Counted from the first letter of the stretch, positions 25,042-63,747 are shown. The stretch: DNA of 64,000 nucleotides from Candidatus Curtissbacteria bacterium RIFCSPLOWO2_02_41_11 (GCA_001775055.1 MFBU01000022.1:3278-67277), one strand, 5' to 3'. The notes: generated by a model from the sequence alone, not told the origin. Program-made: numbers and translations.

Positions 25042-26181
25042 TTACAAATTTCTGCTAACTGTAGATTTGTAAACTTCTTCGGTGTATTTGGCAACCTTTT
25101 GCCAACTATAAATTCCAGCTAATTGCTTTGCCTGCTTACTTTTTTGATTATACAGAGTTTTCCTAGTTAACAACTCATAAAATCTTTTTGAAAAGAGTAG
25201 TGGTTCTCGGGGATCTACCATAAAACCGCCTTTTGAATTATTGGTTACTTCTCGGTGAGCAGGAATATCAGAATTAACATAAGGAAGGCCTGCGCAGCAA
25301 GCTTCAATAGTAGCAATGCCAAAACCTTCCACTAAACTTGGTAATGAAAAAATGTGCGAAGACTTAATTAATCGAATCAATTCTTTTCGTGGTAAATTGA
25401 AAAGAAATTGCACTTTAGAGTTTATTTTGAGGGCTTTGGTCAGATTTTTTAAGTTGTGATACTCGGGTCCAGTTCCAACAATTATTAATCTCACCTCCTT
25501 TAGCCTTGTTGAAAGGTGGGCAAATGCAAGAATTAAAGTCCTTAAATTTTTATATTTAGCAAGTCTGGAGACACAGATAATCGTCGGTTTTGGGAATTTT
25601 TTAAGGGAAGTTTTAAACTCTTTGTGATCGATTCCGCACGGCACAGTATAAATTCTACCTTTAATTCGCCCTTTAAGCTTTTGGGCGGTCTGTTTGGAAA
25701 TGGCAATATACGAATCGAAACCAAGTATTAAATTTAATCTTTCCAAAATTTCCCCAAAAATACCCCAAAAGCCTGCATTATTAATCCAAGAGCCGACCCA
25801 AACATCCGGATACCAAGCCACGGAGGGAATTTTTTTTCTTTTGGCAATTATTTTGGCAATGAAATGTGTAATAAAATTTGACCCATCAACAACCTCTATA
25901 TCAAGGGTAGTACCAAAACTGATTGCATCTTTAATAAAATAGATTCTTTTTGACAAACCACCGACCGTTGCCATGTATGAACGTCTAGGCCCAACACGAT
26001 AAACAGTAAAGTTAAACATCTTTTCTACTTTCGGACTAGTTAAGCCTCTGCTTGTGATTACACAAATCTGATGTTTTCTGGCTAGATATTTTGCAAGATA
26101 AAATGTTCTGGCTTCAACTCCACCAGAAAATTTTAAATCTTTCCCTGTCGGGAAAAATTCAGAAATTAGAAGAATTTTCAT
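25042..26181 (-). CDS. GT4-family glycosyltransferase
   Basis: The motif 'PSLVEGFGIATIEACCAGLPYVNSDIPAHREV' is present. Confidence 0.7.
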   Translation of the reverse strand: MKILLISEFFPTGKDLKFSGGVEARTFYLAKYLARKHQICVITSRGLTSPKVEKMFNFTVYRVGPRRSYMATVGGLSKRIYFIKDAISFGTTLDIEVVDGSNFITHFIAKIIAKRKKIPSVAWYPDVWVGSWINNAGFWGIFGEILERLNLILGFDSYIAISKQTAQKLKGRIKGRIYTVPCGIDHKEFKTSLKKFPKPTIICVSRLAKYKNLRTLILAFAHLSTRLKEVRLIIVGTGPEYHNLKNLTKALKINSKVQFLFNLPRKELIRLIKSSHIFSLPSLVEGFGIATIEACCAGLPYVNSDIPAHREVTNNSKGGFMVDPREPLLFSKRFYELLTRKTLYNQKSKQAKQLAGIYSWQKVAKYTEEVYKSTVSRNL

Positions 26182-26546
26182 TTTTTGCTTGTTTTTTGAC
26201 GATTCTTCACAGAAGAATGAGAAGAATTTTGGAGGGCAAGTTGTCTAATAAGATATGTAATTTCGTGACGGAGATCTTCGATCATTACATAAATTCTAAA
26301 TACCAAATAAAAAAGGAGAGCCAAAGAAAGGTAAACGATAACATCAACACCTCTGCCGACACCAAAATATGAGGCAAGCTTCGTTGTCGTCCCGGGTAGG
26401 ATAACGCCCACGAAAGCCGCTAACCAAATCAAGAACCAAAAGAATCCGACCTGGGTAGAAATAACTTTTTCTTTAATTCTTAAAAGTACTCTTGAAATAG
26501 CAAATAATATAAAGACCAATAGTACAATTTGGATGGTTGTCAACAT
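26178..26546 (-). CDS. Small 3-4 TM membrane protein (DUF2304-like), frequently partnered with DPM1-like GT2 genes
   Basis: The protein is 122 aa and hydrophobic. The pattern 'IQIVLLVFILFAISRVL...FFWFLIWLA...GRGVDVIVYLSLALLFYLVFRIYV' is present. It lies directly downstream of a soluble DPM1-like GT2. Confidence 0.4.
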   Translation of the reverse strand: MLTTIQIVLLVFILFAISRVLLRIKEKVISTQVGFFWFLIWLAAFVGVILPGTTTKLASYFGVGRGVDVIVYLSLALLFYLVFRIYVMIEDLRHEITYLIRQLALQNSSHSSVKNRQKTSKK

Positions 26547-26610
26547 TTCAAAAATTCGCTGGTATTATATATCAGCCCTGCTGGCTCAGCAACAAGTTGA
26601 ACGATTAACT

Positions 26611-27291
26611 TTATCTCAGTAACTTAACTAAAAATCTTGCAAAAACCGGGATTGCATTAATATTTTTTTGGCCTTTGATTCTGGAATAATCCGTATAGAT
26701 TGCCTTTATTGGCACTTCAATAACTTTCAAATTATGCCTCTTTGCCTCAAGAAGTATTTCTGATGAAAAATCCATTCTGTCGGCCTTGAAATCAATAAGA
26801 TCTATAGTTTTTTTGGAAAATGCTCTAAGTCCAGATTGTGAATCCGTAGAAAGAACTCCATATAGAATAAAAGTGGCAAAGTTGGCAAACCAATTAAGAA
26901 GAAACCGATCGGATGGGATTACTTGCTTATTTAAAAAGCGTGAACCGATGACCACATCCGCTTTTTTTAAAATAATTGGCTGAATTAACTTTGAGATATC
27001 GCGAGGATCATGCTGTCCATCTGCGTCAAAAGTAACTACGATATCAGCATTTTGCTTTTTTGCCCAAGAAAAACCGGTTTTAATTGCTGCGCCAAGACCT
27101 CTATTTAATAAATGTCTGACAATATTAACGTCGGCTCTTTGCGCTTCTTTAAGTGTCTGATCCAATGACCCATCGTCAATTACGACAACATCAACATTCG
27201 AAACGCCCTTAAGTCTTCTGGGTAAAGATTTTAAAACCTTAAATATTACTTGGGATTCATTAAATGCTGGAACAGCAATAACAATTTTCAC
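26611..27291 (-). CDS. Polyprenyl-phosphate sugar synthase-like GT2 (DPM1/ArnC-like, soluble)
   Basis: The motif 'KIVIAVPAFNESQVIFKVLKSLP...VVVIDDGSLDQT...FDADGQHD' is present. Confidence 0.7.
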   Translation of the reverse strand: MKIVIAVPAFNESQVIFKVLKSLPRRLKGVSNVDVVVIDDGSLDQTLKEAQRADVNIVRHLLNRGLGAAIKTGFSWAKKQNADIVVTFDADGQHDPRDISKLIQPIILKKADVVIGSRFLNKQVIPSDRFLLNWFANFATFILYGVLSTDSQSGLRAFSKKTIDLIDFKADRMDFSSEILLEAKRHNLKVIEVPIKAIYTDYSRIKGQKNINAIPVFARFLVKLLR

Positions 27292-27297
27292 TGCTAA

Positions 27298-27741
27298 TTA
27301 CGAACGGGCTACAATAAAAATACCAAAAAGCATCACTACTATACCAACTATTCTTATAAAAGAAACATCCTCATTTAAAAATTTTATAGAACCAATGGTA
27401 GTAAACATAAAAACTATCGTTGCAAAAATTGGATAAGCCCGTGAGAGGTCATTAAATGTTAATACACGAAGCCAAATTAAAAAAGAAAGGCCATAAAGGC
27501 CAAGTCCTGCCAGGATAAATGGATTTGCCGCAGCTTTCGATATTTCAAGAAAAAGTTTTGTCAAGTTTCCACTCAAACCACCAAATGATAAAACCCCTTT
27601 TTTAAGAAGAATATTTGCCGTCACATTAAAAGTAACGCTTGTCAGTAAAAGAGCGTAAAAGTTTTGGAAAAAACTCATGGTGTGATCATACCATTGACAG
27701 CTGACAACTGACAACTGACCCTTCGATGGACTCAGGGTCAT
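27298..27741 (-). CDS. SMR/EamA-like 4-TM membrane protein (ArnE/ArnF-like lipid-linked sugar flippase subunit candidate). The start is uncertain (Met at 27741 or internal Met at ~27678).
   Basis: The core is about 125 aa with 4 hydrophobic helices. It lies immediately upstream of the DPM1-like GT2. The first 21 codons of the track ORF run through a GC-rich heptamer-repeat element. Confidence 0.4.
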   Translation of the reverse strand: MTLSPSKGQLSVVSCQWYDHTMSFFQNFYALLLTSVTFNVTANILLKKGVLSFGGLSGNLTKLFLEISKAAANPFILAGLGLYGLSFLIWLRVLTFNDLSRAYPIFATIVFMFTTIGSIKFLNEDVSFIRIVGIVVMLFGIFIVARS

Positions 27742-27780
27742 CCTGAGCTTGTCGAATGGATGACAACTGACATTTGCTGA
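27695..27780. repeat. GC-rich element with heptamer tandem repeats (CTGACAA-type x4) flanking a unique ~40-nt core. A shortened copy lies inside the CDS at 32255-32287.
   Basis: The sequence 'ttgacagctgacaactgacaactgaccc ... atgacaactgacatttg' is seen directly. The nearly identical 'ttgacaactgacaactgaccactgacatttg' occurs at 32255-32287. Confidence 0.5.
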
Positions 27781-27819
27781 ATCATTTTGATATTTGAAAT
27801 TTAATATTTGATATTGGCT

Positions 27820-28911
27820 TTACGCTACCCAATATCCTTGAGTGAAAAGGGTAGTGCTGATTAAAAGAAGCATCACAAAAATTGTTAGGATTAAAATCTT
27901 AAAAAGAGTACTCTTAATTAAGCCTAAGACGATAAAAATTGGAAAGGCTACCAAGATGTATCTTGGCATTGAAGTCAGCGTTCCGGTTAAAGTCGGAGTT
28001 AAAACTGCCAAAAAACTAAAGACGAGCCACTCTGTTTTAACCTTCTTGTAAGCTACGACTAAAATAGCTAGAGCAAAGACAGTAGCAGTCAGCTCGAAAG
28101 CAGCTGATAACAAAGTCAACCCATTGGTTGTTGCAAGAATCTTCAAATACCTCCAAAAAACCTGTGGCAAAAGTACTATTTGAGTAGTTGATCTTTCTTG
28201 TCCCCAAACAGCTTGTGACGTTAAAAAATAAAAGGGATTATTGAACTCGATCCTTAAATAAAACATATAGACTAATAACCCTAGTGGTACTATCAATAAA
28301 GGAATTAATGACGTGACTTTTTTGCCCAACATCAGTGAAGGGGTAAGGAAAATTCCGATAAGTCTTGTCAAAGATGCGAATAAACCAATAATTGAGGCTA
28401 ACCAAATCTTATTTTTATCAAAAAGAAGAAAAACAGAAATTATCATTAAAAAAAATAAACCTTCGGTGTAAATTGAACCAAAATAGAAAGATGTCGGAAA
28501 TGTTAATAAAAAAAGACACGACCAAAAAGCTATTTTTCCGCCATGATATTTGTTAACAAGTTTGTGAAATATTACTAAAGCGAAAAAAAATGCAATATTG
28601 GAAATCAAAAGTCCAGCTATCAGAAAATTTCCAAAAGTTAAAAACGCGACAAATTTAATAAGTAAAGGGTAAAGTGGAAAGAAAGCCTGAGTATATTGAT
28701 AGACATAGCCATCTTTGGCAATTCTTAAATAGTGAACTCCATCAAAATTTCCAAATGACCAGATAAAGTGCGGTAAGTCAGTGTTAATTAACTCTTCTTC
28801 ATAGTAAGGAAAGCTTTTGCCGAAATTTGGTGGTAAAACTTGAGTGGCAATTGAGGTCACCGCAAACAACCCAATGCGCCAAATAAAGAAAAGAAGAAAG
28901 ATCTTTTGCAT
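27820..28911 (-). CDS. Polytopic membrane protein, GT-C-like (PIG-V/GT76-like mannosyltransferase family candidate)
   Basis: There are about 9 TM helices. The first loop 'FGNFDGVHYLRIAKDGYVYQYTQAFFPLYP' resembles the PIG-V family DxxHY...GY...AFFP pattern. Confidence 0.4.
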   Translation of the reverse strand: MQKIFLLFFIWRIGLFAVTSIATQVLPPNFGKSFPYYEEELINTDLPHFIWSFGNFDGVHYLRIAKDGYVYQYTQAFFPLYPLLIKFVAFLTFGNFLIAGLLISNIAFFFALVIFHKLVNKYHGGKIAFWSCLFLLTFPTSFYFGSIYTEGLFFLMIISVFLLFDKNKIWLASIIGLFASLTRLIGIFLTPSLMLGKKVTSLIPLLIVPLGLLVYMFYLRIEFNNPFYFLTSQAVWGQERSTTQIVLLPQVFWRYLKILATTNGLTLLSAAFELTATVFALAILVVAYKKVKTEWLVFSFLAVLTPTLTGTLTSMPRYILVAFPIFIVLGLIKSTLFKILILTIFVMLLLISTTLFTQGYWVA

Positions 28912-28998
28912 TTTTCTACATTCGTATGATTAGTATGAATTCGTATATTTGTATCGATGCTAATCTACTAATGGATGCTACTGATACGAATTTTAATC
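28912..28998 (-). promoter_or_regulatory. Intergenic region with ATTCGTAT (x2) and ATACGAAT half-sites, related to 12765-12858
   Basis: It shares TTAGTATGAATTCGTATATT, GATGCTAAT and ATACGAATT words with the 12765-12858 spacer. It lies upstream of the PIG-V-like gene start at 28911. Confidence 0.35.
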
Positions 28999-30033
28999 TC
29001 ACTTAACTATTGATTTATAGACTGCAATTGTTTGTCTGGCTACTTTTTGCCAGTTAAATTTAGATGCATGTTTAATTAATTTCTGGGAGGAAATTTCTTT
29101 TTGCCTTTTTGAAAGATTTAAGGCATGAGTTATTTTTTGGGCAATATCAGGAGGGTCTGTTGGATCACAAAAAATCGCATTATTGCCGGTAAATTCCGCT
29201 AGTGATGCTACATTAGAGCAAACCACCGGTGTACCACAAGCCATACTTTCTAAAACCGGCAGCCCAAAACCTTCATAAAATGACGGCAAAACAGTAAGCC
29301 CCGCAAGGTTGTAGATATATATCAGATCATTCTCATTGATATATCCCGTTTTGATAATTTGCTTTTGTAAACCTAGTTTTTTAATTATCTGATTAATTTC
29401 TTTAACTTGAGTTAAACTATCATCAGTCAGTGCCTTACCAACCATTACCAGATTGACTTTGGCAATTTTAACAGCCTCAAGTAAATTTGGAAGATTTTTA
29501 TTCCAGTTAACATCTCCAACATAAAGAACAAATTTTTTGGGGAGAATATATTTTTTTGAAACTGAAAAAAGGGTATTTTCGTCAGTTATCTCCTTAAAGT
29601 TGAAACCGGCAGCTAAATAAACAACATGAATTTTGTCTTTGGGGAAAGAAAGTTTTGAAACAATATCCTTCTTGGATGCTTGCGAATCACAGATAATTGC
29701 ATCGACATTTTTGAGAGATCTCTTTTGAAAAAACAGACTGATGTAACCTTTAAGCCCAACTGGGAAGTAGTGGGGAAAGACTAAAGGAATAACATCATGG
29801 ATAGTCACTACCCTATTCGTAGTCTTTTTCATTGGCAGTGTATGAAAAAAAAGATCAAAATAAGGATAGTGAATAACGTCTGCTGGTGGGGGAGAGGTGG
29901 GTTTTGAGAAAAATTCAAATTCTATCCCCCAATCTCTTTTTTTAAACTCCTCTGTCAATCTTTGGGTATATGAACCAATTCCTCTTGTCTTATGCCCTGT
30001 TCCAAGTGGGCTTATGTCAATCGCGACTTTCAC
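28999..30033 (-). CDS. GT4-family glycosyltransferase
   Basis: The motif 'PSFYEGFGLPVLESMACGTPVVCSNVASLAEF' is present. Confidence 0.7.
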   Translation of the reverse strand: MKVAIDISPLGTGHKTRGIGSYTQRLTEEFKKRDWGIEFEFFSKPTSPPPADVIHYPYFDLFFHTLPMKKTTNRVVTIHDVIPLVFPHYFPVGLKGYISLFFQKRSLKNVDAIICDSQASKKDIVSKLSFPKDKIHVVYLAAGFNFKEITDENTLFSVSKKYILPKKFVLYVGDVNWNKNLPNLLEAVKIAKVNLVMVGKALTDDSLTQVKEINQIIKKLGLQKQIIKTGYINENDLIYIYNLAGLTVLPSFYEGFGLPVLESMACGTPVVCSNVASLAEFTGNNAIFCDPTDPPDIAQKITHALNLSKRQKEISSQKLIKHASKFNWQKVARQTIAVYKSIVK

Positions 30034-30057
30034 AATGATTTAATTATATCAACAAAC

Positions 30058-30118: not shown

Positions 30119-30142
30119 CAGACTTTGCAAAGTCTTAAAAAC

Positions 30143-30258: not shown

Positions 30259-31023
30259 CTAGCGGCGTTCCCAATATTTGACATACGCGTAGAAGTGGTG
30301 TGCCGCCGAAAATAAAGCCCAGACAAACCCCCTAAAACCATCAACATAACCCCGATGTCTAACAAAAATATCGAAAAAAGTGACAAGTGGCTTTAGAACC
30401 ATGTAGTAAAAAACCGGCCAAGGCCCCCTACCCGGATCTATCTCTCTAAGCTTTTGAGCAGTTTGATCTGTATAACGGTCGGCTCGATAAAGGTATCTGG
30501 CAAATGAGGGATCGGCCATGTGAAGAATGTCGTTTTTTAGATACCCTACTTCCCCATCAATTGCAACCTGTTCATGAACACTAACTTCGGGAAGCCTGCC
30601 TTTGCCTCGTCTAAAAAGCCTAATCACACTATCAGGATAAGCTCCGCCCTTTGTTAAATAACCGCCTAAAAACCAATTGCGACGATTGATCCAAAAACCG
30701 TTCTCTTTGGGGTTTTTAGAGATAATTCCTTTGATCTCACCGACTAATTCTTTACTGACCCTTTCATCGGCATCCATTAGAAAAATCCAGTCGCTAGTGC
30801 AATTATCTATAGCTAAATTTTTATTAATGTGAAACATTGGTTTATTAGTTGTTTTAATAATTTTTGCACCCAGATTCTCTGCCAGTTCTCTGGTTCTGTC
30901 TGTTGATGACCCGTCAGCTACCACTATCTCATCGGCAAAATTTTTTAAAGACTCGATACAATCAACAATATTTTCCTCCTCATTAAATGTTGCCAGTGCA
31001 GCTGAAATTTTTATCTTTTTCAT
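30259..31023 (-). CDS. GT2-family glycosyltransferase (WaaE/KdtX-like subfamily); paralog of 51411-52172 and 56118-57023
   Basis: The motif 'ISAALATFNEEENIVDCIESLKNFADEIVVADGSSTDRT...MDADER' is present. The shared C-terminal 'GG.YPD...RLFRRGKG' motif links the three paralogs. Confidence 0.65.
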   Translation of the reverse strand: MKKIKISAALATFNEEENIVDCIESLKNFADEIVVADGSSTDRTRELAENLGAKIIKTTNKPMFHINKNLAIDNCTSDWIFLMDADERVSKELVGEIKGIISKNPKENGFWINRRNWFLGGYLTKGGAYPDSVIRLFRRGKGRLPEVSVHEQVAIDGEVGYLKNDILHMADPSFARYLYRADRYTDQTAQKLREIDPGRGPWPVFYYMVLKPLVTFFDIFVRHRGYVDGFRGFVWALFSAAHHFYAYVKYWERR

Positions 31024-56117: not shown

Positions 56118-57023
56118 TTAGCTGATTTTTCGGCGGAGTTTATAGTAGAGTTTTTTGGCTGGGTTTGCTTCAATCAATGTCTGGTAAATCCAATATCTAA
56201 TATCCCTAGTCACGTTTGAAAATTCCTTTACAACCTCGGAGAGAAAATTATCTGGGGTTAAATCGGCAAATTTTTCTTTTCTCTCCCAGACTTTGGCAAA
56301 AAATACCAGTGAATAAAAAGCTTGAAACATGGAAAGAATCAGGCCGTGGATTCCATCTTTATAGCCTTTCTCAAAGAAAAATGTTTTGACAAAATCATTC
56401 GTTGGCCAACGGATAGCATCATGCCAAACAATTTGTTGACCGCTTTTGAGGAAATTTTCAGTTTCTGATTCCGTGTAGGTTTTGTCGAGCTTTTGGATAA
56501 ACTGAGAGACAGTCTGATAATTATAGTGGATTAGAGGATTCGTCAATTTACCAACATCTCCAGTCACAACAAGCTTTTCATGCACATGCTTTTCGGGAAA
56601 TTTTCCTTTCCCGCGCCTGAAAAGTCGTAAATTATAATCCGGCCACCAGATAGAATGTCTAATCCATTTGCCAAAAATTATATTTTTTCGGGGAATTTCA
56701 TATCCTGAGAACTGATTGACGCTGATTTTAGATCGGATTTCGCGGATTAATTCTTTCGTGAGTCTTTCATCAGCGTCAAGGGAAATTATCCAGTCGCCTG
56801 TTGCCTTGCCAAATCCAAAATTTTTATTTTTATTAAGCATCACCGGGTCATTTGGTCTTATAAAAATTTTGTTTGTGTATTTTTTGGCAATTTCTACCGT
56901 TCTATCCTCCGAAGTGTTGTCCACGAAAATTATTTCATCAGCAACAAGTCTTGCAGATTTTAAACAATCCTCAATTAACTGTTGCTCATTATATGCGGAG
57001 ATAACAACACTAATTTTTTTCAT
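56118..57023 (-). CDS. GT2-family glycosyltransferase (WaaE/KdtX-like), paralog
   Basis: The motifs 'ISVVISAYNEQQLIEDCLKSARLVADEIIFVDNTSEDRT' and 'IWWPDYNLRLFRRGKG' are present. Confidence 0.65.
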   Translation of the reverse strand: MKKISVVISAYNEQQLIEDCLKSARLVADEIIFVDNTSEDRTVEIAKKYTNKIFIRPNDPVMLNKNKNFGFGKATGDWIISLDADERLTKELIREIRSKISVNQFSGYEIPRKNIIFGKWIRHSIWWPDYNLRLFRRGKGKFPEKHVHEKLVVTGDVGKLTNPLIHYNYQTVSQFIQKLDKTYTESETENFLKSGQQIVWHDAIRWPTNDFVKTFFFEKGYKDGIHGLILSMFQAFYSLVFFAKVWERKEKFADLTPDNFLSEVVKEFSNVTRDIRYWIYQTLIEANPAKKLYYKLRRKIS

Positions 57024-58492
57024 GATTTGGAAAGCAAAGAGCCAATGATCATTTTAGCATCTTCCACCAGATGCTTTTTAAAAATAGCGAGTGAAAGCAC
57101 AAAATAAACTATTGCCCCAAAAAGGATAATTAAAATTAGACTAGGTATACCTTGCACAAAATTTTGCTGAATTGTTCTTATTAAGAGAAACATAACTATT
57201 GATGTTAAAAGCGGGCCAAAAATACTCCTTCCGACAGAAATTGGAATTTCCTTTTTAACAATATAGATCGTAATAAGTGATGTTGATGCAACAATAGCAG
57301 ATGCAATACCTACACCGACAAAACCAAAATTTAAAACTAGAGGAATCGTCAAAATCCATGTCGAAGCTGTCCAGAAAAGCATCAAATTTAAAACTATTTT
57401 GGAACGGCCAGTAGCAAAAAGTGCATTAGTAAAAGTTGTCGATATTGACGAAAAAATACTGTTAACTGCAAACAGGTACAGCAAAGGCAAAGCTGGCTCC
57501 CATTTTTGATATTTGGGAATTACCTCGATAAGTTTTGGAGCAATAGCAGTTATCCCAAAGACAGAAGGATAAACAAGATATGTAACAAAAAATAGAGATT
57601 TTTCGATGGCTTTGCCCAACTCTTGTTTATGTTCTTGGAGTCTTGAGTAAGCAGGGAAAGTAACTTTGTTAACACTATCCATAAAAAATCTAAGCGGTAA
57701 AAAGGCGAATTTTTGAGACCAACCGATGTAACCGATTTGACCGAAGGTAAGAATCTTGCCTAGAACAACAACCAGAAGATCATCTTTCAAAAGGGCAATA
57801 ATGCTATTTAACTGAAATGGTATTCCGAAGGATGTAAGTTTTTTGGCAATGTTTTTATCGAAACTAAAAGATGGTTTCCACGGGGCAAGAATATAAATGA
57901 GCATTAGACCGGCAATACCCCTAGCCAGCACAGCCCAGGTAAAACTTGTTATCCCAAATCCTAAAATAGCCAAGACAACAGCTGTTGTATAAAAAACAAT
58001 GTTTTCGGCAACTTGAGGAATAACAAGCTTTGTAAAATTTAATCCTCTCTCAAGAATAATGGAAGGGATTGTTTTTAAAGAAGAAAGCAAGAGAGAAAAA
58101 ATCAAGATCCTAACCAACCATAAACCTTGATTGTCAAGATTGTAAAAATCGGTTATGGTTTTTGAAAAAATCAACCCTAATAAAACAAGAATCGCAACAA
58201 TAGTTTGCTGGATTGTAAAGGTGGTAGACAAGTCTTTTTGGTTTAACTCTTCTTTTTTTTGAATAAGAGCGGCGGCAAGTCCAATGTCAGAAAAATAAAC
58301 GAAAATGTTAATTAAGGCTGAAACAAAAACGTAAATTCCATAAGTAGGCTCATCCAGTATAATTGTAAGAACAAAAACTGCTATGTAAGAGAAAATCTGA
58401 ATAAAGAAAGTTCTAAGAGTAAAAGTCACAACTCCCGATATTGCCTTCTTCTTGATTAACTCTAAGTCTAGTGAATATCGCGGATTTTCCAT
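57020..58492 (-). CDS. Wzx/PST-family (MOP superfamily) polysaccharide flippase
   Basis: The protein is 490 aa with about 12-14 TM helices. Its N-terminus 'KKKAISGVVTFTLRTFFIQIFSYIAVFVLTIIL' is typical of O-unit flippases. Confidence 0.6.
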   Translation of the reverse strand: MENPRYSLDLELIKKKAISGVVTFTLRTFFIQIFSYIAVFVLTIILDEPTYGIYVFVSALINIFVYFSDIGLAAALIQKKEELNQKDLSTTFTIQQTIVAILVLLGLIFSKTITDFYNLDNQGLWLVRILIFSLLLSSLKTIPSIILERGLNFTKLVIPQVAENIVFYTTAVVLAILGFGITSFTWAVLARGIAGLMLIYILAPWKPSFSFDKNIAKKLTSFGIPFQLNSIIALLKDDLLVVVLGKILTFGQIGYIGWSQKFAFLPLRFFMDSVNKVTFPAYSRLQEHKQELGKAIEKSLFFVTYLVYPSVFGITAIAPKLIEVIPKYQKWEPALPLLYLFAVNSIFSSISTTFTNALFATGRSKIVLNLMLFWTASTWILTIPLVLNFGFVGVGIASAIVASTSLITIYIVKKEIPISVGRSIFGPLLTSIVMFLLIRTIQQNFVQGIPSLILIILFGAIVYFVLSLAIFKKHLVEDAKMIIGSLLSKS

Positions 58493-60330
58493 TGTCTGAT
58501 TATAAAGAAAAATAAAATTAGTAAAGATGTTAGACTTATTATATTGCCGGTAAACCTGTCGAAGGTATCTTTAAATTGTATTTCAACTCTATGAACTCCT
58601 TCGGGGATATTTAAGGTAATTAATTTAAGACGGTTATTGTCAGCTATTGTAAATTTTTTACCATCCACTTTAGCATTCCAGCCCGGAAAGTTAAAAACAT
58701 TAACCCTAACCTGTAATGGATCTTTAGCGTTAACAATAAAGTTGATCTTGGAAGGTGTCGAATTTAAACTGTTGATTTGAGCCAAACCGGATAATATTTG
58801 CACCTCCTCGGTCGGTATCTCTGACTTTTTGATATTCACGACATTGGTGCCTAACTCGCTTTTTTTTAGTTCAACTCCTTTCGGAATATATTCAAAGGAA
58901 GATTGAGAAATATCCCAGTTAATAATCTCTTCTGAAGTAGCAATTTCATCTGTTAAATCTGGGCGATATGTCTGTGGTTTAAAAAGTTTAAAGTTCGGGA
59001 TAGCAAGAAGGACTACAAGAATTAACGAAGCTATCAGTCTTAATATCGGCAATCTCAAAAGATAGACAAGTGCACCTGCTAGGATTGATGAGAAGAGTGA
59101 TGTGAATATTAGAAAACGCCAAGGGAATTGGGTATAGGCAAGAGGCGGTATCAAATCCCAAATCGGCTTTGAGTAAAAAGTGGTCATAAAGGCACTGAAT
59201 AGAAAAAGGACAAAGAAGACAATTGACAATTGACCCGCCTTCGCTAAAGCTTCGGCGGGCGAGCCATTGGCTCCTGAGAGTTTGAGTCTAATTAAATGAG
59301 CAATTGCCAGAACCGATGCTGCAATTGATGTGAAAACGTGCAGTTTGCCGATTTTGAAGGAAATCCCGTCGGTAAGACCAGCAGCAGAACCGCCAAAACC
59401 CCAAGGCCAGTTCCAAAGTTGTTGTGGGTAAATAAAGTGAATGTTGTAATTTGCGAGATTAACTAAAAGTAACTGATCAACAATAGTGTATTTTTTTTCA
59501 AGAAGGGCTGGTAGCCAAAAGAATGCGGAAAGTCCGAAAGAATAAACAATTGACGATAAACAATTGACGATAAACAATTTCTTATTTTCTGCTTTCCAAA
59601 TCAGAAATAGTAAATAAACTGGCAAGATGAGCATAAAGGGAAGAAATATCAGATTATGGGTAACCATCAGAAGTGCTAAAAAAATTGCTGATATGTAAAT
59701 GTAGAAAGCTTTTTCTGTCCTCTTTAGCCTATACAGTGACCAAAGGATTAGTGGTAACCAGACAAAAGAAAATGACTCACTCAATGCCCCTCTGACATAA
59801 ATGTCTAGGGCCCTGTAAGGTACTAAAAGATAAAAAACACTAGCTACAACCGCTGAATATTTATCCCAAAATTCCTTTGCTAGTATGTACATTGCGAAAC
59901 CTGAAGCAATAATTGATGCAAAAAAAACTAGTTTGATGGAATTTATGAAACCAGAACCTATTAGATGGAATAGTTCTCCAAGCATATAAACAAAAGGCGG
60001 ATAGAAAACAAACAATGGATAACCAAATCCGAATCCTAAACCATCAACCCAGCGGACAGGAAATTGACCTGATTTTAAAGCCTCGTCAAACAAAAAAAGC
60101 CTGGCTATTTGTTGGTCGTCATGAATGACATAAAGTCCAGGTTTTAAAAGAGGCAAAGAGATGACTATTGAAGCAAGAAGAATAACTAAGATTGCAACAA
60201 AATTTTTAATCATTGGGAATATAAATGTAAACTTGCTTATTAAATCCTTTCCTGAAATCAACAAGTAATTCACCCTTATTATAGTAGATAGAAAGCGTTG
60301 GATCATGGTAGATTGCCCAAATGGCAGCAT
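58468..60330 (-). CDS. Large polytopic membrane protein, GT-C-like (same class as 41483-43234). The real start is probably the internal Met at ~60213.
   Basis: The 'YVIHDDQQIARLFLFDEAL' HD motif follows TM1. There are about 13 TM helices plus a C-terminal extracytoplasmic domain and a final TM helix. The gene carries three in-frame repeat elements. Confidence 0.4.
   Translation of the reverse strand: MLPFGQSTMIQRFLSTIIRVNYLLISGKDLISKFTFIFPMIKNFVAILVILLASIVISLPLLKPGLYVIHDDQQIARLFLFDEALKSGQFPVRWVDGLGFGFGYPLFVFYPPFVYMLGELFHLIGSGFINSIKLVFFASIIASGFAMYILAKEFWDKYSAVVASVFYLLVPYRALDIYVRGALSESFSFVWLPLILWSLYRLKRTEKAFYIYISAIFLALLMVTHNLIFLPFMLILPVYLLFLIWKAENKKLFIVNCLSSIVYSFGLSAFFWLPALLEKKYTIVDQLLLVNLANYNIHFIYPQQLWNWPWGFGGSAAGLTDGISFKIGKLHVFTSIAASVLAIAHLIRLKLSGANGSPAEALAKAGQLSIVFFVLFLFSAFMTTFYSKPIWDLIPPLAYTQFPWRFLIFTSLFSSILAGALVYLLRLPILRLIASLILVVLLAIPNFKLFKPQTYRPDLTDEIATSEEIINWDISQSSFEYIPKGVELKKSELGTNVVNIKKSEIPTEEVQILSGLAQINSLNSTPSKINFIVNAKDPLQVRVNVFNFPGWNAKVDGKKFTIADNNRLKLITLNIPEGVHRVEIQFKDTFDRFTGNIISLTSLLILFFFIIRQWKIRDIH
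59217..59259. repeat. Heptamer tandem (GACAATT x2 plus GACCC) fused to a GC-rich CCCGCC-N15-GGCGGG palindrome, in-frame
   Basis: 'agacaattgacaattgacccgccttcgctaaagcttcggcgggcgagcc' is seen directly. It is related to 27695, 32255 and 39311. Confidence 0.5.
59544..59579. repeat. Tandem 14-nt repeat (AAACAATTGACGAT x2.6), in-frame
   Basis: 'aaacaattgacgataaacaattgacgataaacaatt' is seen directly. It shares the CAATTGAC core with the 59217 heptamers. Confidence 0.45.
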
Positions 60331-61639
60331 CGCCAGAAAGCGTTTGTCTCTCCCAACGGCTATTAAGCGGATATAAAATTACTGAGTCTGAAGGCAAAGT
60401 TGGAAAGCTTCTTTTGAGATTGGTACTTGCTTCACGGGCAGTTTTCTGAGCTTCTATCATCCATGAATTTATTTTGTAAAAAGAGAGAGTTGTATAAGAA
60501 GTAAATATCCATATCAATAAAATGGGGATAACCATGAAACTGTTCCTACTTAGGATGACGAGATATGCAATCAAGAAATAGATACCCATAGAAGAAAGCG
60601 TTAAATACATTGTGAAGGTATGGTTTGGCAAAATTAAAACAGGGGAAATTCCAGCAACAAACCAGAAGAGAGCAAATGTTAATAAACGAATATTTAAATG
60701 TAATCTTTGCTTAAGAAGGTAAAATATTGGGAGCCCAATTCCAAGAGCCACAATCCATATTGCGCCTATAAAATTCTTTACGACTAAAGGCCAAAATTCA
60801 AGTAGAAACTTACTATTAAAAACGATCAGATTGTTTACTACTTGTTTTTTAAACTCTTCGGGAATATTAAAAGTCCAGAGAAAATACCAAAGCAGAGCCT
60901 TAATCAACTCTTGATTAAATGAAAGTTGATATTCAGTAATCTGCGGGATTTTAATAAAGAATAATCTTAAAATGATGTATATGAATGAGACTAAGATAAA
61001 AGGGGCAAGGATTTTAAGGGATTTCATGAGAGAATTTCCAAGAACTAAAAAATAATAAAATCCGAAAATAACCGGCCAAGTTACTGAAAATTCGAACGAG
61101 CCAATTGTAATTAGAAAAACAATTAAAGATAAAGCATAAAAAATTATTCTTTTTCTTTCAAGAAATTTTAGAAAAAGCAAAGAAGTCAAAAGCCAAAAAA
61201 AGGTCCCCGTTATATTGTAGGCAGCAGCTATCCAAGTTATTGCCATAAAGTGGATAGATGATGTAAGCCAAAAAAAAGCACTAAGAAAGCCTATCCAAAT
61301 ATTGCCTGTAATTTTCTTTACAAGAACAATTAGTAAAATTGCACTTGAAAATAAAAGAGCAAATGTTAACACCCTAAAACCGCTAGGATCAAATCCGAAT
61401 ATTTTTAAAGATAAGAAAAAATAATTCTGCAGACTTATTGGTCTATAAGCAATAATGTCATCTCTGAATTTAAAGAACTCTAAATACTGACCCAAGTTTT
61501 GAGCCTTTGAAATATTAATCTCGAAAAAATCATCTTGAAAAAAATAATAATTTAAACTCGAATGATAAAGAGCAAAAGAAATAAAAAATATTATTAAAAT
61601 CAGAATTGCAAAAGTCTTACTCGATAATCTTTCAATCAT
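60206..61639 (-). CDS. Polytopic membrane protein with DD motif after TM1 (GT-C-like, unassigned family); tandem paralog A
   Basis: The motif 'YYFFQDDFFEIN...FKFRDDIIAYRP' is present, with about 12 TM helices and a short C-terminal soluble tail. Confidence 0.35.
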   Translation of the reverse strand: MIERLSSKTFAILILIIFFISFALYHSSLNYYFFQDDFFEINISKAQNLGQYLEFFKFRDDIIAYRPISLQNYFFLSLKIFGFDPSGFRVLTFALLFSSAILLIVLVKKITGNIWIGFLSAFFWLTSSIHFMAITWIAAAYNITGTFFWLLTSLLFLKFLERKRIIFYALSLIVFLITIGSFEFSVTWPVIFGFYYFLVLGNSLMKSLKILAPFILVSFIYIILRLFFIKIPQITEYQLSFNQELIKALLWYFLWTFNIPEEFKKQVVNNLIVFNSKFLLEFWPLVVKNFIGAIWIVALGIGLPIFYLLKQRLHLNIRLLTFALFWFVAGISPVLILPNHTFTMYLTLSSMGIYFLIAYLVILSRNSFMVIPILLIWIFTSYTTLSFYKINSWMIEAQKTAREASTNLKRSFPTLPSDSVILYPLNSRWERQTLSGDAAIWAIYHDPTLSIYYNKGELLVDFRKGFNKQVYIYIPND

Positions 61640-63056
61640 TTATCCTTGGGTTAATTTCAAAAATTTCAATACTTGATGGAAAAGTAAGCTCTCTTTGATG
61701 GGTTGTATAAATACTTTTTAAACTCGAATCATTATAAATAACTTGTATTGCATCTTGATCATTTAAAGATTGTTTGACATTTTCTTCTGTTTCAATCAAT
61801 GTAAAGCCATGCTTTTGGGAAAAGTCGATATCTGCAGGCTTTAGCACAAATAAAGAATCTGCAGCAGGCTTTTCAACTTTATTCACAATATAGCCTAGAT
61901 AAGCCTTGGAAATAGCCTGTTCGTTAACTGTCCAGTGAGTTTCTTTAGTAAAAGATAAGGTAAGATATGATGAAATAATCCAGATTGTAGAGAACATTAA
62001 CAAAAGTAAATTATTTTTTATTTGCAATTTTTCAAGACTTAAAGCGAAAAGATAAAACAGACCAATTGCTCCTACTGTCAAGTACATAGGGAATGCGTGC
62101 TTTGGTAACAAGAGTACTGGTGAGATGCCAAGAATAAACCATTCCACCCCTTTTATTATTTTTTTAAAATTAAGTTCCGACAAAAATACAGTAAATAGGA
62201 ATGTGATGATTAAGATTATCGGTAAGATCAAATACCTAATAAACTGAAGGCTTGCAATTATCGAAGATTTAGGTTTTGAAAAAAAGAAAATTGTAGACAT
62301 TTTTTCCGGGATGTTAAATGTCCAGACAAAATACCAAAATAGATTTGTTAAAATCCGAGGCCCAAAACCTATCTCATATTGATCTGTTCTTGGAAGAGGA
62401 AAAATAAAAAATCTTGCTATCAAATAAAAAATCGAGATAATTAAACAAGGCAATAATTTTTTTAATGTTGGCTTATTAATACCTTTTAAAATTAATAGAA
62501 TTGGAATAGCTATAAGAGTAAATTCCGATGCAGCAAGTGCAAAAAGGAAAAATGTAAAGGAAAAAATAATTTTTTGGGTTAAAAAAAGAATAAGAGTAGA
62601 AAGAATGAATGTAGGACCGATAACATAAGAAGTCGTTGAAAGCCAAGATAGAGGAACAAAATGGAAAGCAGCAGTTCCATATAAAAATGAGGACATTAAT
62701 GAAATTTTTTTACTAACTTTGAGTGTCCGAAAAAGGATATAGACGAGAATGATATTCAAAAAATGAAAAAAGAAGACAATCAGATGATATCCAAATGGTT
62801 TTAGATCAAAAAATACTTGGCCAATTTTAAAAAAAATCGGCATTGTAAGCGGCCGCCAGTAAATGATATCAGTGCGAAACTTAAAGAATGACCAAAAATC
62901 GTCAGTTCTAACCCAATTTAAAACAAACCAGTCGTCTTGAAAGAAATAATAACTAAGGCTTGGATAGTACAAATAAAAGCTTGCAGCAAAAATTCCCAAA
63001 AAGGCTAGAGGTATCTGGTATTTGCTAATTGTTTTTTTCAGTTTTGGGATACCCAT
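61632..63056 (-). CDS. Polytopic membrane protein with DD motif after TM1 (GT-C-like); tandem paralog B
   Basis: The motif 'SYYFFQDDWFVLN...FKFRTDIIYWRP' is present. The conserved blocks 'YFVWTFNIPE' and 'ISPVLLLP' are shared with paralog A. Confidence 0.35.
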   Translation of the reverse strand: MGIPKLKKTISKYQIPLAFLGIFAASFYLYYPSLSYYFFQDDWFVLNWVRTDDFWSFFKFRTDIIYWRPLTMPIFFKIGQVFFDLKPFGYHLIVFFFHFLNIILVYILFRTLKVSKKISLMSSFLYGTAAFHFVPLSWLSTTSYVIGPTFILSTLILFLTQKIIFSFTFFLFALAASEFTLIAIPILLILKGINKPTLKKLLPCLIISIFYLIARFFIFPLPRTDQYEIGFGPRILTNLFWYFVWTFNIPEKMSTIFFFSKPKSSIIASLQFIRYLILPIILIITFLFTVFLSELNFKKIIKGVEWFILGISPVLLLPKHAFPMYLTVGAIGLFYLFALSLEKLQIKNNLLLLMFSTIWIISSYLTLSFTKETHWTVNEQAISKAYLGYIVNKVEKPAADSLFVLKPADIDFSQKHGFTLIETEENVKQSLNDQDAIQVIYNDSSLKSIYTTHQRELTFPSSIEIFEINPRIND

Positions 63057-63747
63057 GAAGTTTTTTATTTATAGCCCAAAGATACCACTTGAGATATTTG
63101 GGGAGCCATTTTTTAAGATAGAAACGGGACTCTTTAGCACTGTATGTCCAAGTAGTTGGCACTTCGGTGACTCTGTAACCATCAAAATGGGCCTTAACTG
63201 TCAGCTCAAGCGCCAATTCAAAACCCCCATCAGATTCGATTTTGACATTTCGCAAAAATTTTCTTGAGTAAAGTCGAAATGAATTGGTTGCATCGTGAGT
63301 CGATAGTCCCACTAGGAAATGGAGACTGATACCGGCAACTCGAGATAAAACTTGTTTGACAAGCGGACCTCCAATTTGTTGACCGCCTCTCATGTAGCGC
63401 GAAGCAGCAATTACGTCATAACCTTGATCAAACTTGTCCATCATTTTATCTAAGACCTTTGGATCGTCCGTTAAATCAGCCATCATTACACAAACCGATT
63501 CACCTTTTGCCAGTTTCAGGCCGGTCTTGAGGGCGTTTAATGCACCTTTGCCAAAAATATTTTTGACCAGTCTAACACTTGGGTATTTTTTCTGGAGTTT
63601 TTCAACAACTGGAACGGTTGTATCCTCATCCATATCATAGATAATTAAAAGTTCATGGGGTATTTTGACTTGCGACTCGACTTGGCGGATCGTTTGGCCG
63701 ATTATCTTGCCCTCGTTGTAAACAGGCATGACAATAGAAAGCTGCAT
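63025..63747 (-). CDS. Polyprenyl-phosphate sugar synthase-like GT2 (DPM1-like, soluble)
   Basis: The motif 'LSIVMPVYNEGKIIGQTIRQVESQ...LLIIYDMDEDTT' is present. Confidence 0.65.
   Translation of the reverse strand: MQLSIVMPVYNEGKIIGQTIRQVESQVKIPHELLIIYDMDEDTTVPVVEKLQKKYPSVRLVKNIFGKGALNALKTGLKLAKGESVCVMMADLTDDPKVLDKMMDKFDQGYDVIAASRYMRGGQQIGGPLVKQVLSRVAGISLHFLVGLSTHDATNSFRLYSRKFLRNVKIESDGGFELALELTVKAHFDGYRVTEVPTTWTYSAKESRFYLKKWLPKYLKWYLWAINKKLHGYPKTEKNN

Follow-up and report, generated by a model that had tools for sequence, protein, structure and literature searches.

A dense array of GT-C-fold glycosyltransferases in a putative envelope-glycan gene cluster of Candidatus Curtissbacteria

Why would a bacterium with a tiny genome devote so much of one locus to membrane glycosyltransferases? 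The host, Candidatus Curtissbacteria, is an uncultured groundwater bacterium (CPR, Microgenomates), with a genome that we take to be about 1 Mb. The 64-kb stretch of its DNA analyzed here (64,000 nucleotides, the window) contains 15 GT-C-fold membrane glycosyltransferases. The original prediction had placed all fifteen in positions 26178-63747 (the span); the number holds for the window, with 14 in the span and the other one upstream. Those 14 genes take up about 24.0 of the 37.6 kb of the span, by arithmetic from the ORF coordinates. ORFs are found at the predicted positions, in tight, operon-like packing, and almost all of them run along the minus strand (Table 1, where genes can be identified by their first coordinate). 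The span is probably the core of an envelope-glycan cluster of at least 64 kb, for the stepwise extracytoplasmic elongation, branching and decoration of a cell-wall glycopolymer.

Table 1. Features of the window
Position	Strand	Assignment	Basis
2854-4599	-	15th GT-C, PMT_2-like, outside the span, motif LRIENLGSL..FYGDEF	hhalign
4693-5661	+	GT2, ArnC/PgfS/GtrB type, putative polyprenyl-P-sugar synthase	Pfam GT2 3.2e-32
5645-6604	+	LPG_synthase_TM/TIGR00374 flippase-like membrane protein	PF03706 2.3e-38
18854-19591	-	ABC-2 exporter ATPase, Wzt-like	ABC_tran 5.1e-22
19594-20373	-	ABC-2 exporter permease, Wzm-like	ABC2_membrane 1.1e-18
26178-26546	-	DUF2304 small 3-TM protein, GacJ/Rv3632 type, adjoins GT2 26611	PF10066 1.4e-23
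26611-27291	-	Soluble GT2, PpgS/GacI/DPMS type, putative polyprenyl-P-HexNAc/hexose synthase	NCBIfam PpgS 1.5e-45
27298-27741	-	4-TM SMR/ArnF-like, putative polyprenyl-P-sugar flippase subunit	NCBIfam ArnF 1.5e-13
27820-28911	-	GT-C, PIG-V/Mannosyl_trans2 type, motif FGNFDGVHYLRIAKDGY after TM1	PF04188 1.5e-11
28999-30033	-	Cytoplasmic GT4	Glycos_transf_1 2.6e-33
30259-31023	-	Small GT2, SunS/TIGR04283-like, not DPM1 class	GT2 7.8e-21
31020-32621	-	GT-C, five-paralogue PMT_2/PMT family	PMT_2 7.5e-10
32618-34399	-	GT-C, five-paralogue PMT_2/PMT family	PMT_2 9.3e-8
34402-35910	-	Distinct PMT_2 GT-C, motif IFTDEAIY	PMT_2 7.9e-14
35907-37622	-	GT-C, five-paralogue family	PMT 1.2e-8
37659-38234	-	191-aa orphan, ~4 TM, inside GT-C array	Weak similarities only
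38221-39855	-	GT-C, five-paralogue family	PMT 1.6e-10
39874-41496	-	GT-C, five-paralogue family	PMT_2 1.5e-12
41483-43234	-	GT-C, PTPS_related type, motif SHDGETH	PF10131 1.5e-7
44427-45647	+	GT-C, family without Pfam/NCBIfam model	AlphaFold model
45656-46432	-	GT2, AglJ/PpgS/Dol-P-hexose transferase type, putative polyprenyl-P-sugar synthase	GT2 7.5e-20
46419-47387	-	Generic cytoplasmic GT2, EpsD/MftF/rhamnosyltransferase-like	
47369-49693	-	YfhO-family GT-C, 774 aa, motif PADDLLGLYHPWR	PF09586 2e-29
49674-50723	-	Cytoplasmic GT4	
50720-51433	-	Methyltransferase	
51411-52172	-	GT2	
52169-53077	-	GT2	
53056-56091	-	GT-C, 1011 aa, PMT_2 core residues 85-237	PMT_2 2.4e-10
56118-57023	-	Generic GT2	GT2 4.8e-25
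57020-58492	-	Wzx/MOP-family flippase	Polysacc_synt_3 1e-50, MurJ 1.6e-10
58468-60330	-	GT-C, PTPS_related-like, motif VIHDDQQ	Paralogue of 41483
60206-61639	-	GT-C, family without Pfam model	Paralogue of 61632
61632-63056	-	GT-C, family without Pfam model	hhalign and AF2 model
63025-63747	-	GT2, DPMS/PgfS/GtrB type, putative polyprenyl-P-sugar synthase	GT2 2e-26

The GT-C-fold enzymes

Every candidate tested by HMM searches, hhalign and AlphaFold/Foldseek is a GT-C protein and none is a transporter, so the possibility raised with the prediction, that most are transporters or unrelated permeases, is not borne out. Pfam gathering scores are passed by 10 of the 15: 31020, 32618, 34402, 35907, 38221, 39874 and 53056 for PMT_2/PMT, 27820 for PIG-V (44.7 bits for PF04188, cut-off 22.4), 41483 for PTPS_related (30.7 bits for PF10131, cut-off 26.4) and 47369 for YfhO (103 bits for PF09586, cut-off 28.5). 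The C-terminal region of 53056 (about 600 aa; 614 aa searched) has no Pfam match. Two other polytopic proteins of the span are not GT-C: 57020, a Wzx/MOP flippase by Pfam, and the unassigned 191-aa 37659.

The other five were assigned by different means. The protein from 58468 has no Pfam match but is a clear paralogue of 41483 (full-length in blastp, 27% identity over 595 aa, E 7e-47). The upstream protein (2854-4599), without a Pfam or NCBIfam match, was assigned by profile-profile comparison with the alignment of the five-paralogue family (hhalign probability 94.7%, E 5.6e-8), in which the DE motifs are aligned. Neither Pfam nor NCBIfam has a match for 61632, 60206 or 44427. The first two are mutual paralogues (E 9e-46) of a family found mainly in Curtissbacteria, with an invariant FFQDD after TM1 and an hhalign probability of 96.4% to the PMT_2-type family. 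AlphaFold modeling of 61632 and of 44427 gave matches to GT-C structures only. For 61632 (AF2 model, pLDDT 93.9), the top 18 Foldseek matches are PglB, STT3, AglB, ArnT, Pmt4 and ALG6, the best being oligosaccharyltransferases. For 44427, PglB, STT3, AglB and Pmt4 are also at the top of the list, together with PimE, and the best matches are ALG12, ArnT and Pmt4.

Members of the five-paralogue family share 29-39% identity (blastp), and four of the five exceed the Pfam threshold for PMT (PF02366). Among solved structures, their sequence profile retrieves ArnT alone, with a weak match (E 0.026).

As predicted, an acidic motif of catalytic type follows TM1 in all 15 proteins, and it is nearly invariant across hundreds of relatives. 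In the five-paralogue family, DE is present in 280 of 281 aligned residues, and the DE, SPWH and R..FE motifs are invariant. IFTDEAIY of 34402 is unchanged in 11/11 relatives, HD of 41483 is retained in 54-56 of 56, and in 44427 Asp60 is invariant and Asp48 and Asp63 are nearly so. Homology to GT-C enzymes and the position after TM1 suggest that these motifs face outward; a rough hydropathy and positive-inside count yielded no clear topology.

Donor synthesis, flipping and export

The four predicted DPM1/GtrB/ArnC-like GT2 enzymes have their best matches among PpgS, AglJ, PgfS, ArnC, DPMS and GtrB, all under the NCBIfam equivalog cut-offs. The 26611 protein matches PpgS over its full length (155 bits, cut-off 370), and its best PDB match is DPMS (5mlz, 2.8e-17). 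DPMS is matched by 63025 as well (5mlz, 9.7e-20), followed by GtrB (sll0501, 2.1e-14). PgfS is the best NCBIfam match of both 63025 (1.2e-21) and 4693 (149 bits); the latter also matches ArnC (148 bits), nearly full length in both cases, and has two C-terminal TM helices (residues 247-265 and 280-298). There is one C-terminal TM in 45656, which matches AglJ (1.6e-20) and PpgS (2e-16).

The predicted DUF2304 (26178) and LPG_synthase_TM (5645) proteins are both recognized by Pfam. The adjacency of 26178 and 26611 is the same as that in GacJ-GacI and Rv3632-PpgS. GacJ and Rv3632 stimulate GacI and PpgS, respectively (bioRxiv 10.1101/180810), boosting polyprenyl-P-sugar synthesis, and the GT-C GacL/Rv3779 then transfers the sugar outside (bioRxiv 10.1101/180810; PMC9671496). 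The 5645 protein scores 70.7 bits for TIGR00374 (cut-off 43.2), and its gene overlaps that of GT2 4693 by 17 nt. The 4-TM protein from 27298, predicted to be SMR/ArnE-like, proves to be ArnF-like but below the cut-off (51 bits, cut-off 99), with weaker matches to ArnE (2.3e-6) and Pfam Multi_Drug_Res (6.8e-4, under the gathering score). A GtrA/GtcA-family flippase was not detected here.

The components of a synthase-flippase-GT-C system are thus present in the window. The original prediction overlooked the ABC-2 exporter that lies upstream of the span and, within it, seven ordinary cytoplasmic GT2/GT4 genes and one Wzx flippase. These additional genes imply a conventionally assembled acceptor glycan, for which the exporter is the likely export route. 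Pfam scans found no priming phosphoglycosyltransferase, Wzy/WaaL-type polymerase or ligase, or LCP ligase in the window. The backbone pathway is therefore incomplete there, and a different acceptor could be involved.

Proposed pathway and possible acceptors

On the cytoplasmic face, the four GT2 enzymes, one of them teamed with the GacJ/Rv3632-type DUF2304 activator, would transfer single sugars from nucleotide sugars to polyprenyl phosphate. The lipid-linked sugars would be flipped, with the ArnF-like protein, the LPG_synthase_TM-type protein and Wzx as candidates, and passed by the 15 GT-C enzymes to acceptors at the outer face of the membrane. The excess of transferases over synthases (15 to 4), together with old, divergent paralogues kept one-to-one in synteny (see below), suggests that each donor serves several GT-C enzymes with different acceptors or linkages. 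They would then form a line for stepwise elongation, branching and decoration, rather than carrying out independent one-sugar decorations. We infer that a secondary cell-wall glycopolymer is the likeliest acceptor. The neighboring cytoplasmic GT2/GT4 enzymes would build its backbone, for export through Wzx or the ABC-2 transporter. Such a line would follow the logic of mycobacterial LM/LAM/arabinogalactan, streptococcal GAC and lactococcal Rha-CWPS side chains.

Among the closest known systems are the Gram-positive three-component systems (CsbB/GtcA/YfhO, GtlA/GtlB, Csd pairs, GacI/GacJ/GacK/GacL; PMC8035078; bioRxiv 10.1101/180810). They too have a GT2 synthase with or without a DUF2304 helper (26611 and 26178 resembling GacI and GacJ), a small or Wzx-type flippase, and a GT-C of PMT_2/YfhO type that works outside the membrane, and they lie in cell-wall polysaccharide loci that include an ABC exporter. 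The cytoplasmic GT2/GT4 and ABC-2 genes match the GAC model, in which an ABC-exported backbone is decorated outside (bioRxiv 10.1101/180810). Characterized genomes have 1-3 GT-A/GT-C pairs, usually 1:1, whereas the Curtissbacteria window, in which no GtrA/GtcA-family flippase was detected, has 15 GT-C genes for four synthases, mostly in tandem arrays, and comes from a CPR bacterium with a small genome.

It is possible that proteins (S-layer, pilins, adhesins) are the main acceptors instead, and that the array is an O-glycosylation machinery building glycans directly. Pili and S-layers are known from CPR cells, and there are precedents in actinobacterial and eukaryotic PMT (protein O-mannosyltransferases, GT39), Streptococcus mutans PgfS/PgfM1/PgfM2 and Pseudomonas TfpW. 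The PF02366 matches, the PgfS-like GT2 enzymes, and PglB, STT3, AglB and Pmt4 at the head of the lists for both models all agree with protein acceptors, and the DE motif is in loop 1, as it is in PMT. However, the PMT_2/PMT models also cover enzymes glycosylating LTA, WTA and rhamnan (PMC8035078, Table 2). The MIR domain is absent, no window protein has the oligosaccharyltransferase motif WWDxG, and the window has no gene for a candidate acceptor protein. Many cytoplasmic glycosyltransferases and an ABC-2 exporter of the polysaccharide type are encoded in the cluster.

We consider a lipomannan-like surface polymer, built on a membrane glycolipid or lipoglycan acceptor (ArnT- or PimE/Mpt-like) and not linked to the wall, to be unlikely, although sequence alone does not separate this from a cell-wall glycopolymer. 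The fold matches of 44427 to PimE and ArnT point in this direction, as does the retrieval of ArnT by the five-paralogue profile, weak as it is. No genes for lipid-anchor biosynthesis were found, although any GT4 genes with PimA/B-like functions could not be told apart from the others. The Gram-negative ArnC-ArnE/F-ArnT and GtrA-GtrB-GtrC systems have the same three-step logic, and 4693 (ArnC, full length) and 27298 (ArnF/ArnE) resemble the former. Unlike there, all scores are under equivalog cut-offs, GtrA was not found, the GT-C likeness to ArnT is marginal, and the host is a monoderm-like CPR cell without lipid A.

The mycobacterial/corynebacterial network (PimE, MptA-C, EmbA-C, AftA-D, Rv3779 and Pmt, fed by Ppm1, DPA synthesis and PpgS-Rv3632) is a further precedent for a glycolipid acceptor, with many GT-C enzymes fed by polyprenyl-P-mannose (PMC3485146). 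It shares with the Curtissbacteria cluster a PpgS-like GT2 and DUF2304 pair, a GT-C number of the same order, and a few polyprenyl-P-sugar donors common to many GT-C enzymes that build or decorate polymers outside the membrane. Its genes come from other GT-C families (GT53, GT85, GT87, GT89) and are dispersed throughout a genome of 4.4 Mb; no sequence-level orthology beyond the PpgS/DUF2304 pair and no arabinose donor pathway were found here. The GT-C count in mycobacteria is comparable. The prediction of a system far more elaborate than characterized examples is fair against Firmicutes, with at most three GT-A/GT-C pairs in characterized genomes (PMC8035078), but it ignored Corynebacteriales, where LM/LAM synthesis employs GT-C enzymes using polyprenyl-phosphate-mannose (PMC3485146). 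The Curtissbacteria array represents an established mechanism on a scale that is unusual and undescribed; a literature search found no paper describing such arrays of Curtissbacteria and related lineages.

Conservation of the array

The locus had been predicted to be typical of its uncultured lineage, and similar arrays are indeed found in relatives. Across Microgenomates, 55 of the 62 full-length related loci retrieved have 5-10 GT-C genes within 21.6 kb or less, a frequency conditional on one family member, for which the loci were chosen, and not a genome-wide census. Five other Curtissbacteria species have one-to-one orthologues with 38-75% identity (70-75% for 39874), in the same order and with few variable slots. 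The conserved core order comprises genes like 41483, 39874, 35907, 34402, 32618 and 31020.

This synteny favors a conserved multi-step extracytoplasmic pathway over the combinatorial system originally proposed. A combinatorial reading, which now appears quite improbable, would make the GT-C enzymes interchangeable and the surface decoration fast-varying (serotype-like, in a phage/host-specificity arms race). Modified surface glycans serve as phage receptors in Corynebacterium (PMC9671496), and the variable slots do contain extra paralogues of only 28-40% identity, with clear orthologues of 38221 in just two of the five species loci (L005 and L009). Nevertheless, genes like 39874 are found in 80/80 related loci, including those from other candidate phyla, and 35907 has a best-matching ORF in 75/80. 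The window paralogues are old (28-39% identity) rather than recent duplicates, and the ORFs scanned contain no phase-variation repeats or recombinases.

It is improbable, too, that several GT-C enzymes polymerize or ligate Wzx-flipped Und-PP-oligosaccharides in place of Wzy, WaaL and LCP: these are absent from the window, which does have two Wzx-like genes and numerous cytoplasmic glycosyltransferases, oligosaccharyltransferases top the matches of 61632, and a few 44427 homologues match EpsG (PF14897), but the OST-type C-terminal domain is missing along with WWDxG, 44427 is closest to the monosaccharide-transferring ALG12, ArnT and Pmt4, and the absent functions may be encoded elsewhere in the genome.

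The orphan at 37659, with no Pfam or NCBIfam match, may be an accessory protein or a remnant. The true start of the 58468-60330 gene is probably at 60213.

Overall organization of the gene cluster

The window is almost fully coding, with most genes on the minus strand and adjacent genes overlapping by a few bases or separated by gaps of less than 100 nt. The GC content is about 34% over the whole window, with no compositional break. A Pfam scan of every ORF of 120 aa or more (54 in total) indicates that glycan synthesis is the theme of nearly every gene. There are 37 glycosyltransferase genes, 15 of them of the GT-C type, over at least 64 kb (see table). A dihydroorotase gene (pyrC) is the sole clear outsider. 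It lies midway through the cluster, and occupies the same place in three contigs of the same species.

Features of the window, with coordinates or ORF start (the name used in the text)
Position	Strand	Feature	Source or score
window		GT-C-type membrane proteins, 15	Pfam, paralogy, hhalign, models
window		GT2 genes, 11	Pfam scan
window		GT4/GT1-type genes, 11	Pfam scan
window		Methyltransferases, five; one GT4 gene also has a fused FkbM methyltransferase domain
window		Epimerase, oxidoreductases, UDP-sugar-dehydrogenase-like gene	Pfam scan
59-1198		Wzx-like flippase
2854-4599		GT-C candidate upstream of the span	hhalign
5645-6604	+	LPG_synthase_TM flippase-like protein	TIGR00374, above cut-off
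18854-20373	-	ABC-2 exporter
26178-26546		DUF2304 protein	PF10066, 1.4e-23
27298-27741		SMR/ArnF-like protein	51 bits (cut-off 99)
27820		PIG-V	Pfam
31020, 32618, 34402, 35907, 38221, 39874, 53056		PMT_2 and/or PMT	Pfam
37659-38234	-	Orphan membrane protein, 191 aa
41483		PTPS_related	Pfam
43276-44349	-	Dihydroorotase (pyrC)	TIGR00857, 282.9 bits, above cut-off
47369		YfhO (PF09586)	103 bits (cut-off 28.5)
53056-54900	-	C-terminal region of 53056, ~600 residues	No Pfam match
57020-58492		Wzx-like flippase	Polysacc_synt_3, 1e-50

GT-C membrane proteins

In the span 26178-63747, ten proteins exceed the Pfam gathering scores for GT-C families. For PMT (PF02366, cut-off 22.7 bits), four members of a family of five paralogues, 31020, 35907, 38221 and 39874, score 25.2, 35.2, 41.4 and 39.8 bits, respectively, and the fifth, 32618, is under the cut-off at 20.1 bits.

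Four further candidates in the span (44427, 58468, 60206 and 61632) and one upstream of it (2854) have no match in Pfam and NCBIfam searches, the latter giving zero matches for six unassigned membrane proteins. Over its full length, 58468 is paralogous to 41483 (27% identity, E 7e-47), and 60206 and 61632 are paralogous to each other (30% identity, E 9e-46). In the alignment of 35 relatives of this pair, an F-x-Q-D-D motif is located directly after TM1, with FQDD invariant (35/35), and the alignment matches the PMT_2-type family with an hhalign probability of 96.4%. The AlphaFold model of 61632 (pLDDT 93.9) has as its best 18 Foldseek matches in the PDB the GT-C enzymes PglB, STT3, AglB, ArnT, Pmt4 and ALG6 (probability 1.0), and unrelated transporters rank only beneath them. 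For the 44427 family, hhalign finds no relation to the five-paralogue family (probability 14.7%), and its GT-C status required a structure model. In Foldseek, this model (pLDDT 85.9) matches Pmt4, ArnT, PimE, PglB and ALG3/9/12. Finally, hhalign relates 2854 to the five-paralogue family (94.7%), with its GDE placed on the DE of the family. Against the sequences of solved structures, neither the 61632 nor the 44427 family profile gives anything meaningful, and that of the five-paralogue family has ArnT (5ezm) as its sole, weak match (E 0.026).

Based on Pfam, the 61632 model, paralogy and hhalign, these polytopic proteins, with about 8-13 or more TM helices, belong to the GT-C fold; 58468 and 60206 qualify by paralogy, and 2854 by hhalign. 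The ten Pfam-assigned proteins, the four others resolved in the span and 2854 upstream give a total of 15 GT-C genes in the window. The original prediction had placed about 15 in the span; the number is the same, with 14 inside the span, occupying about 24 of its 37.6 kb, and the fifteenth outside it. Two of the GT-C families, that of 44427 and that of 60206/61632, have no Pfam or NCBIfam model and appear undescribed.

The possibility that the polytopic proteins of the span are transporters or permeases is rejected; the only ones that are not GT-Cs are 57020, a Wzx/MOP flippase, and 37659. An oligosaccharyltransferase (STT3/AglB/PglB) identity, which would entail a C-terminal soluble domain with a WWDxG motif, is also rejected because a motif of this type is absent from every protein of the window. 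The C-terminal part of 61632 is a small α/β region of only about 70 residues. Pfam detects no MIR domain among the PMT-type proteins. Bacterial PMTs also have no MIR domain, which is a feature of the eukaryotic members.

The region C-terminal to the GT-C core of the 1011-aa protein 53056 may be an extracytoplasmic acceptor-binding domain, by analogy with AftD or S. aureus YfhO. The 37659 protein, with about four TM helices, is located within the GT-C array and has no match in Pfam or NCBIfam. Its hhalign probability to the central portion of the five-paralogue proteins (9.8%) is too weak for a call, and it has weak similarity to residues 321-415 of the YfhO protein 47369. Its length is constant in all contigs of the same species. 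An accessory subunit and a GT-C remnant are both conceivable identities for it.

The mechanically defined ORF 58468-60330 overlaps 60206-61639 by 125 nt. Its start is probably the ATG at 60213 (MIKNFVAIL...), giving an overlap of 8 nt. The public gene calls of 45656 and 41483 (239 and 574 aa, respectively) also start later than the longest ORF.

The acidic motif after TM1

As originally proposed, acidic residues follow the first hydrophobic helix in all 15 candidates, at a distance of about 5-30 residues. In the 44427 family, D60 is invariant (30/30). To describe their conservation, GT-C ORFs from 80 related genome loci were aligned family by family. The DE of the five-paralogue family is present in 280 of 281 aligned sequences, and the HD of the PTPS_related-like proteins in 54-56 of 56. 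A D is found at this position in 59 of the 62 sequences similar to 53056, and the first D of the YfhO-like proteins is kept in 42 of 51. The segment FTDEAIY is identical in all sequences similar to 34402 (11/11). Such conservation would be expected of a motif for catalysis or donor binding, and the putative donor is a lipid-phosphate-linked sugar.

In the 61632 model, D41 and D42 begin a short helix directly after the TM1 helix (residues 3-35). A crude hydropathy and positive-inside count gives an ambiguous orientation for the GT-C candidates. Their homology to GT-C enzymes and their short, Lys/Arg-rich N-termini suggest that the motif faces outward.

Putative donor synthases and flippases

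Eight GT2 genes are located in the span. Only 26611, 45656 and 63025, together with 4693 upstream, resemble the polyprenyl-phosphate-sugar synthase class. The 26611 protein has a full-length match to PpgS (155 bits) and also matches DPMS (5mlz, 2.8e-17), and 45656 matches AglJ, PpgS and Dol-P-hexose transferase. The matches of 63025 are DPMS (9.7e-20), GtrB sll0501 (2.1e-14) and PgfS. The 4693 protein, which has two C-terminal TM helices, matches PgfS and ArnC over its full length (about 149 bits each). These four had been proposed as DPM1/GtrB/ArnC-like enzymes, and this class is their best match and likely the correct one, with every NCBIfam score under the equivalog cut-off and the activity putative. 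The other five GT2 genes of the span, beyond the three synthase-like ones named originally, are generic (SunS/TIGR04283-like, EpsD-like or rhamnosyltransferase-like).

The 26611 gene lies beside the DUF2304 gene 26178, 64 nt apart and on the same strand, the arrangement of a soluble GT2 and a co-directional 3-TM DUF2304 protein seen in the GacI-GacJ and PpgS-Rv3632 pairs. There, the small membrane partner binds to the polyprenyl-phosphate-sugar synthase and stimulates it strongly, and a GT-C (GacL, Rv3779) finishes the transfer outside the membrane (bioRxiv 10.1101/180810; PMC9671496). The genes after 26611 are the ArnF-like 27298 and the PIG-V-type GT-C 27820. As the DUF2304, GT2, ArnF-like and GT-C genes are consecutive, the region 26178-28911 reads as a putative complete four-gene module.

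No GtrA-family flippase is matched in the window. The flippase candidates are 5645, the strong Wzx match 57020 and the ArnF-like 27298, which is below its cut-off. The ArnC/PgfS-like, membrane-anchored GT2 gene 4693 overlaps the LPG_synthase_TM gene by 17 nt (4693-6604, plus strand), and the GT-C gene 2854 is divergent from it, 93 nt upstream. The genes in 2854-6604 look like a second self-contained module of synthase, flippase and GT-C, outside the span.

A conserved core and its distribution

The large number of GT-C genes had been taken to point to a combinatorial glycosylation system. The comparison with relatives does not bear this out. Identity among the paralogues of the window is only 28-39%, and they are therefore old. 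Because of their age, the pyrC gene inside the cluster and the flat GC content, a mobile or recently duplicated island is ruled out. Five other Curtissbacteria species have a common gene order (41483-like, 39874-like, one or two variable slots, then 35907-, 34402-, 32618- and 31020-like), most of which is retained in each locus, and the best match of each gene is its positional counterpart, at 38-75% identity. Genes similar to 39874 are present in 80 of the 80 related loci and those similar to 35907 in 75, including loci of other candidate phyla, typically at about 40% identity. The few variable slots include 38221, for which just two of the five species loci have a clear orthologue, as well as extra paralogues at 28-40% identity. 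From these sequences, the array reads as a conserved core with distinct enzyme roles and a smaller variable fringe, and does not look freely combinatorial.

Metagenome contigs in ENA, reaching 111 kb in length, also carry an identical locus. Homologues with source names, including those in the alignment of 35 relatives of 60206/61632, are from Candidatus Curtissbacteria. A pattern scan with one genome per species finds at least 588 stretches that encode relatives of the five-paralogue family, and the lineages named among the best 80 of them are Curtiss-, Gottesman-, Levy-, Woese- and Chisholmbacteria and unclassified Patescibacteria/Microgenomates. About 30 of the best 80 are titled, for example, 'uncultured Gammaproteobacteria' or 'uncultured bacterium'. 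These titles are probably taxonomic mislabels, as the loci look the same as the named ones. Microgenomates-type GT-C arrays are seen in many TPA 'binchicken' MAGs titled 'uncultured Gammaproteobacteria' (L010, L013, L020, L024, L027, L029 and others).

HMMs built from the GT-C proteins of the window find 6-10 GT-C ORFs, usually in tandem, in 55 of the 62 related loci longer than 15 kb, a frequency that is not an unbiased census because the loci were selected for containing one family member. Even with this selection, the trend is clear. The arrays consist of 2-7 copies from the five-paralogue family together with YfhO-like, PTPS_related-like and 53056-like genes. The five-paralogue family is large: among 1.84 billion proteins clustered at 50% identity, 5,442 representatives match it at E ≤ 1e-30.

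Possible assembly of an envelope glycan

Much of bacterial diversity belongs to the CPR (Patescibacteria), whose genomes measure about 1 Mb and which presumably live attached to other cells. To our knowledge, their surface chemistry is essentially uncharted. The recurrence of the array in Curtiss-, Gottesman-, Levy-, Woese- and Chisholmbacteria points to a conserved, probably important and so far uncharacterised surface glycan.

In multi-component transmembrane glycosylation, a GT-A enzyme makes a C55-P-sugar, a flippase moves it, and a GT-C transfers the sugar to a cell-wall polymer (PMC8035078). The parts encoded in the window would fit this scheme. The tandem organization of the GT-C genes is different, however, and in characterised Firmicutes the maximum is three 1:1 pairs (PMC8035078), compared to 15 GT-Cs and four synthases here. 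In mycobacterial LM/LAM synthesis, GT-C enzymes use polyprenyl-phosphate-mannose (PMC3485146), so that many GT-Cs share few donors, as we propose for this window. In the model for the group A carbohydrate, a backbone assembled in the cell leaves through an ABC transporter, and a GT-C decorates it outside (bioRxiv 10.1101/180810); similarly, the cluster here has cytoplasmic GT2 and GT4 enzymes, Wzx and an ABC-2 exporter. The mycobacteria-like ratio of GT-Cs to donors and the backbone and export genes like those for the group A carbohydrate suggest that an exported envelope glycopolymer would be elongated, branched and decorated stepwise outside the membrane.

The acceptors may instead be proteins, as for PMT or Pgf-like systems, or a lipid or lipoglycan. 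Some of the GT-Cs may also be a polymerase or ligase: the 64-kb window has no gene for Wzy, WaaL or LCP and none for a priming phosphoglycosyltransferase, but the WWDxG motif of oligosaccharyltransferases is missing there as well.

Stepwise extracytoplasmic assembly, if true, would make a second, independent case of the mycobacterial strategy. With low confidence, we extend it to the Microgenomates-group CPR: these ultrasmall bacteria would assemble a major heteroglycan or lipoglycan of the envelope for the most part outside the membrane, with at least ten GT-Cs, at least two families of which are outside Pfam/NCBIfam, and few polyprenyl-phosphate sugars, a mycobacteria-style polymerisation strategy of independent origin, and the product could be a surface layer for host attachment or recognition. 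The proposed biochemistry is known, and its scale and organization in CPR appear undescribed. A full-text literature search, covering journals other than subscription ones, found no description of GT-C arrays in CPR, Curtissbacteria or Microgenomates, and one Microgenomates genome paper merely counts '29 genes of glycosyl transferases' (PMC7143001). Concrete targets are the large five-paralogue GT-C family, the two GT-C families that have no model, and the GacI/GacJ-like donor module.

The region 14532-20373 (minus strand) encodes two fusion proteins, both adjoining the Wzm/Wzt-like ABC-2 exporter. The first, of 713 aa, joins an N-terminal sequence that is coiled-coil-like to GT2 and Glyco_trans_1_2 domains; the second, of 731 aa, is a fusion of an FkbM methyltransferase and a GT4. 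By analogy, the region resembles an ABC-transporter-dependent polysaccharide synthesis system with a putative methyl chain terminator (WbdD-like logic).
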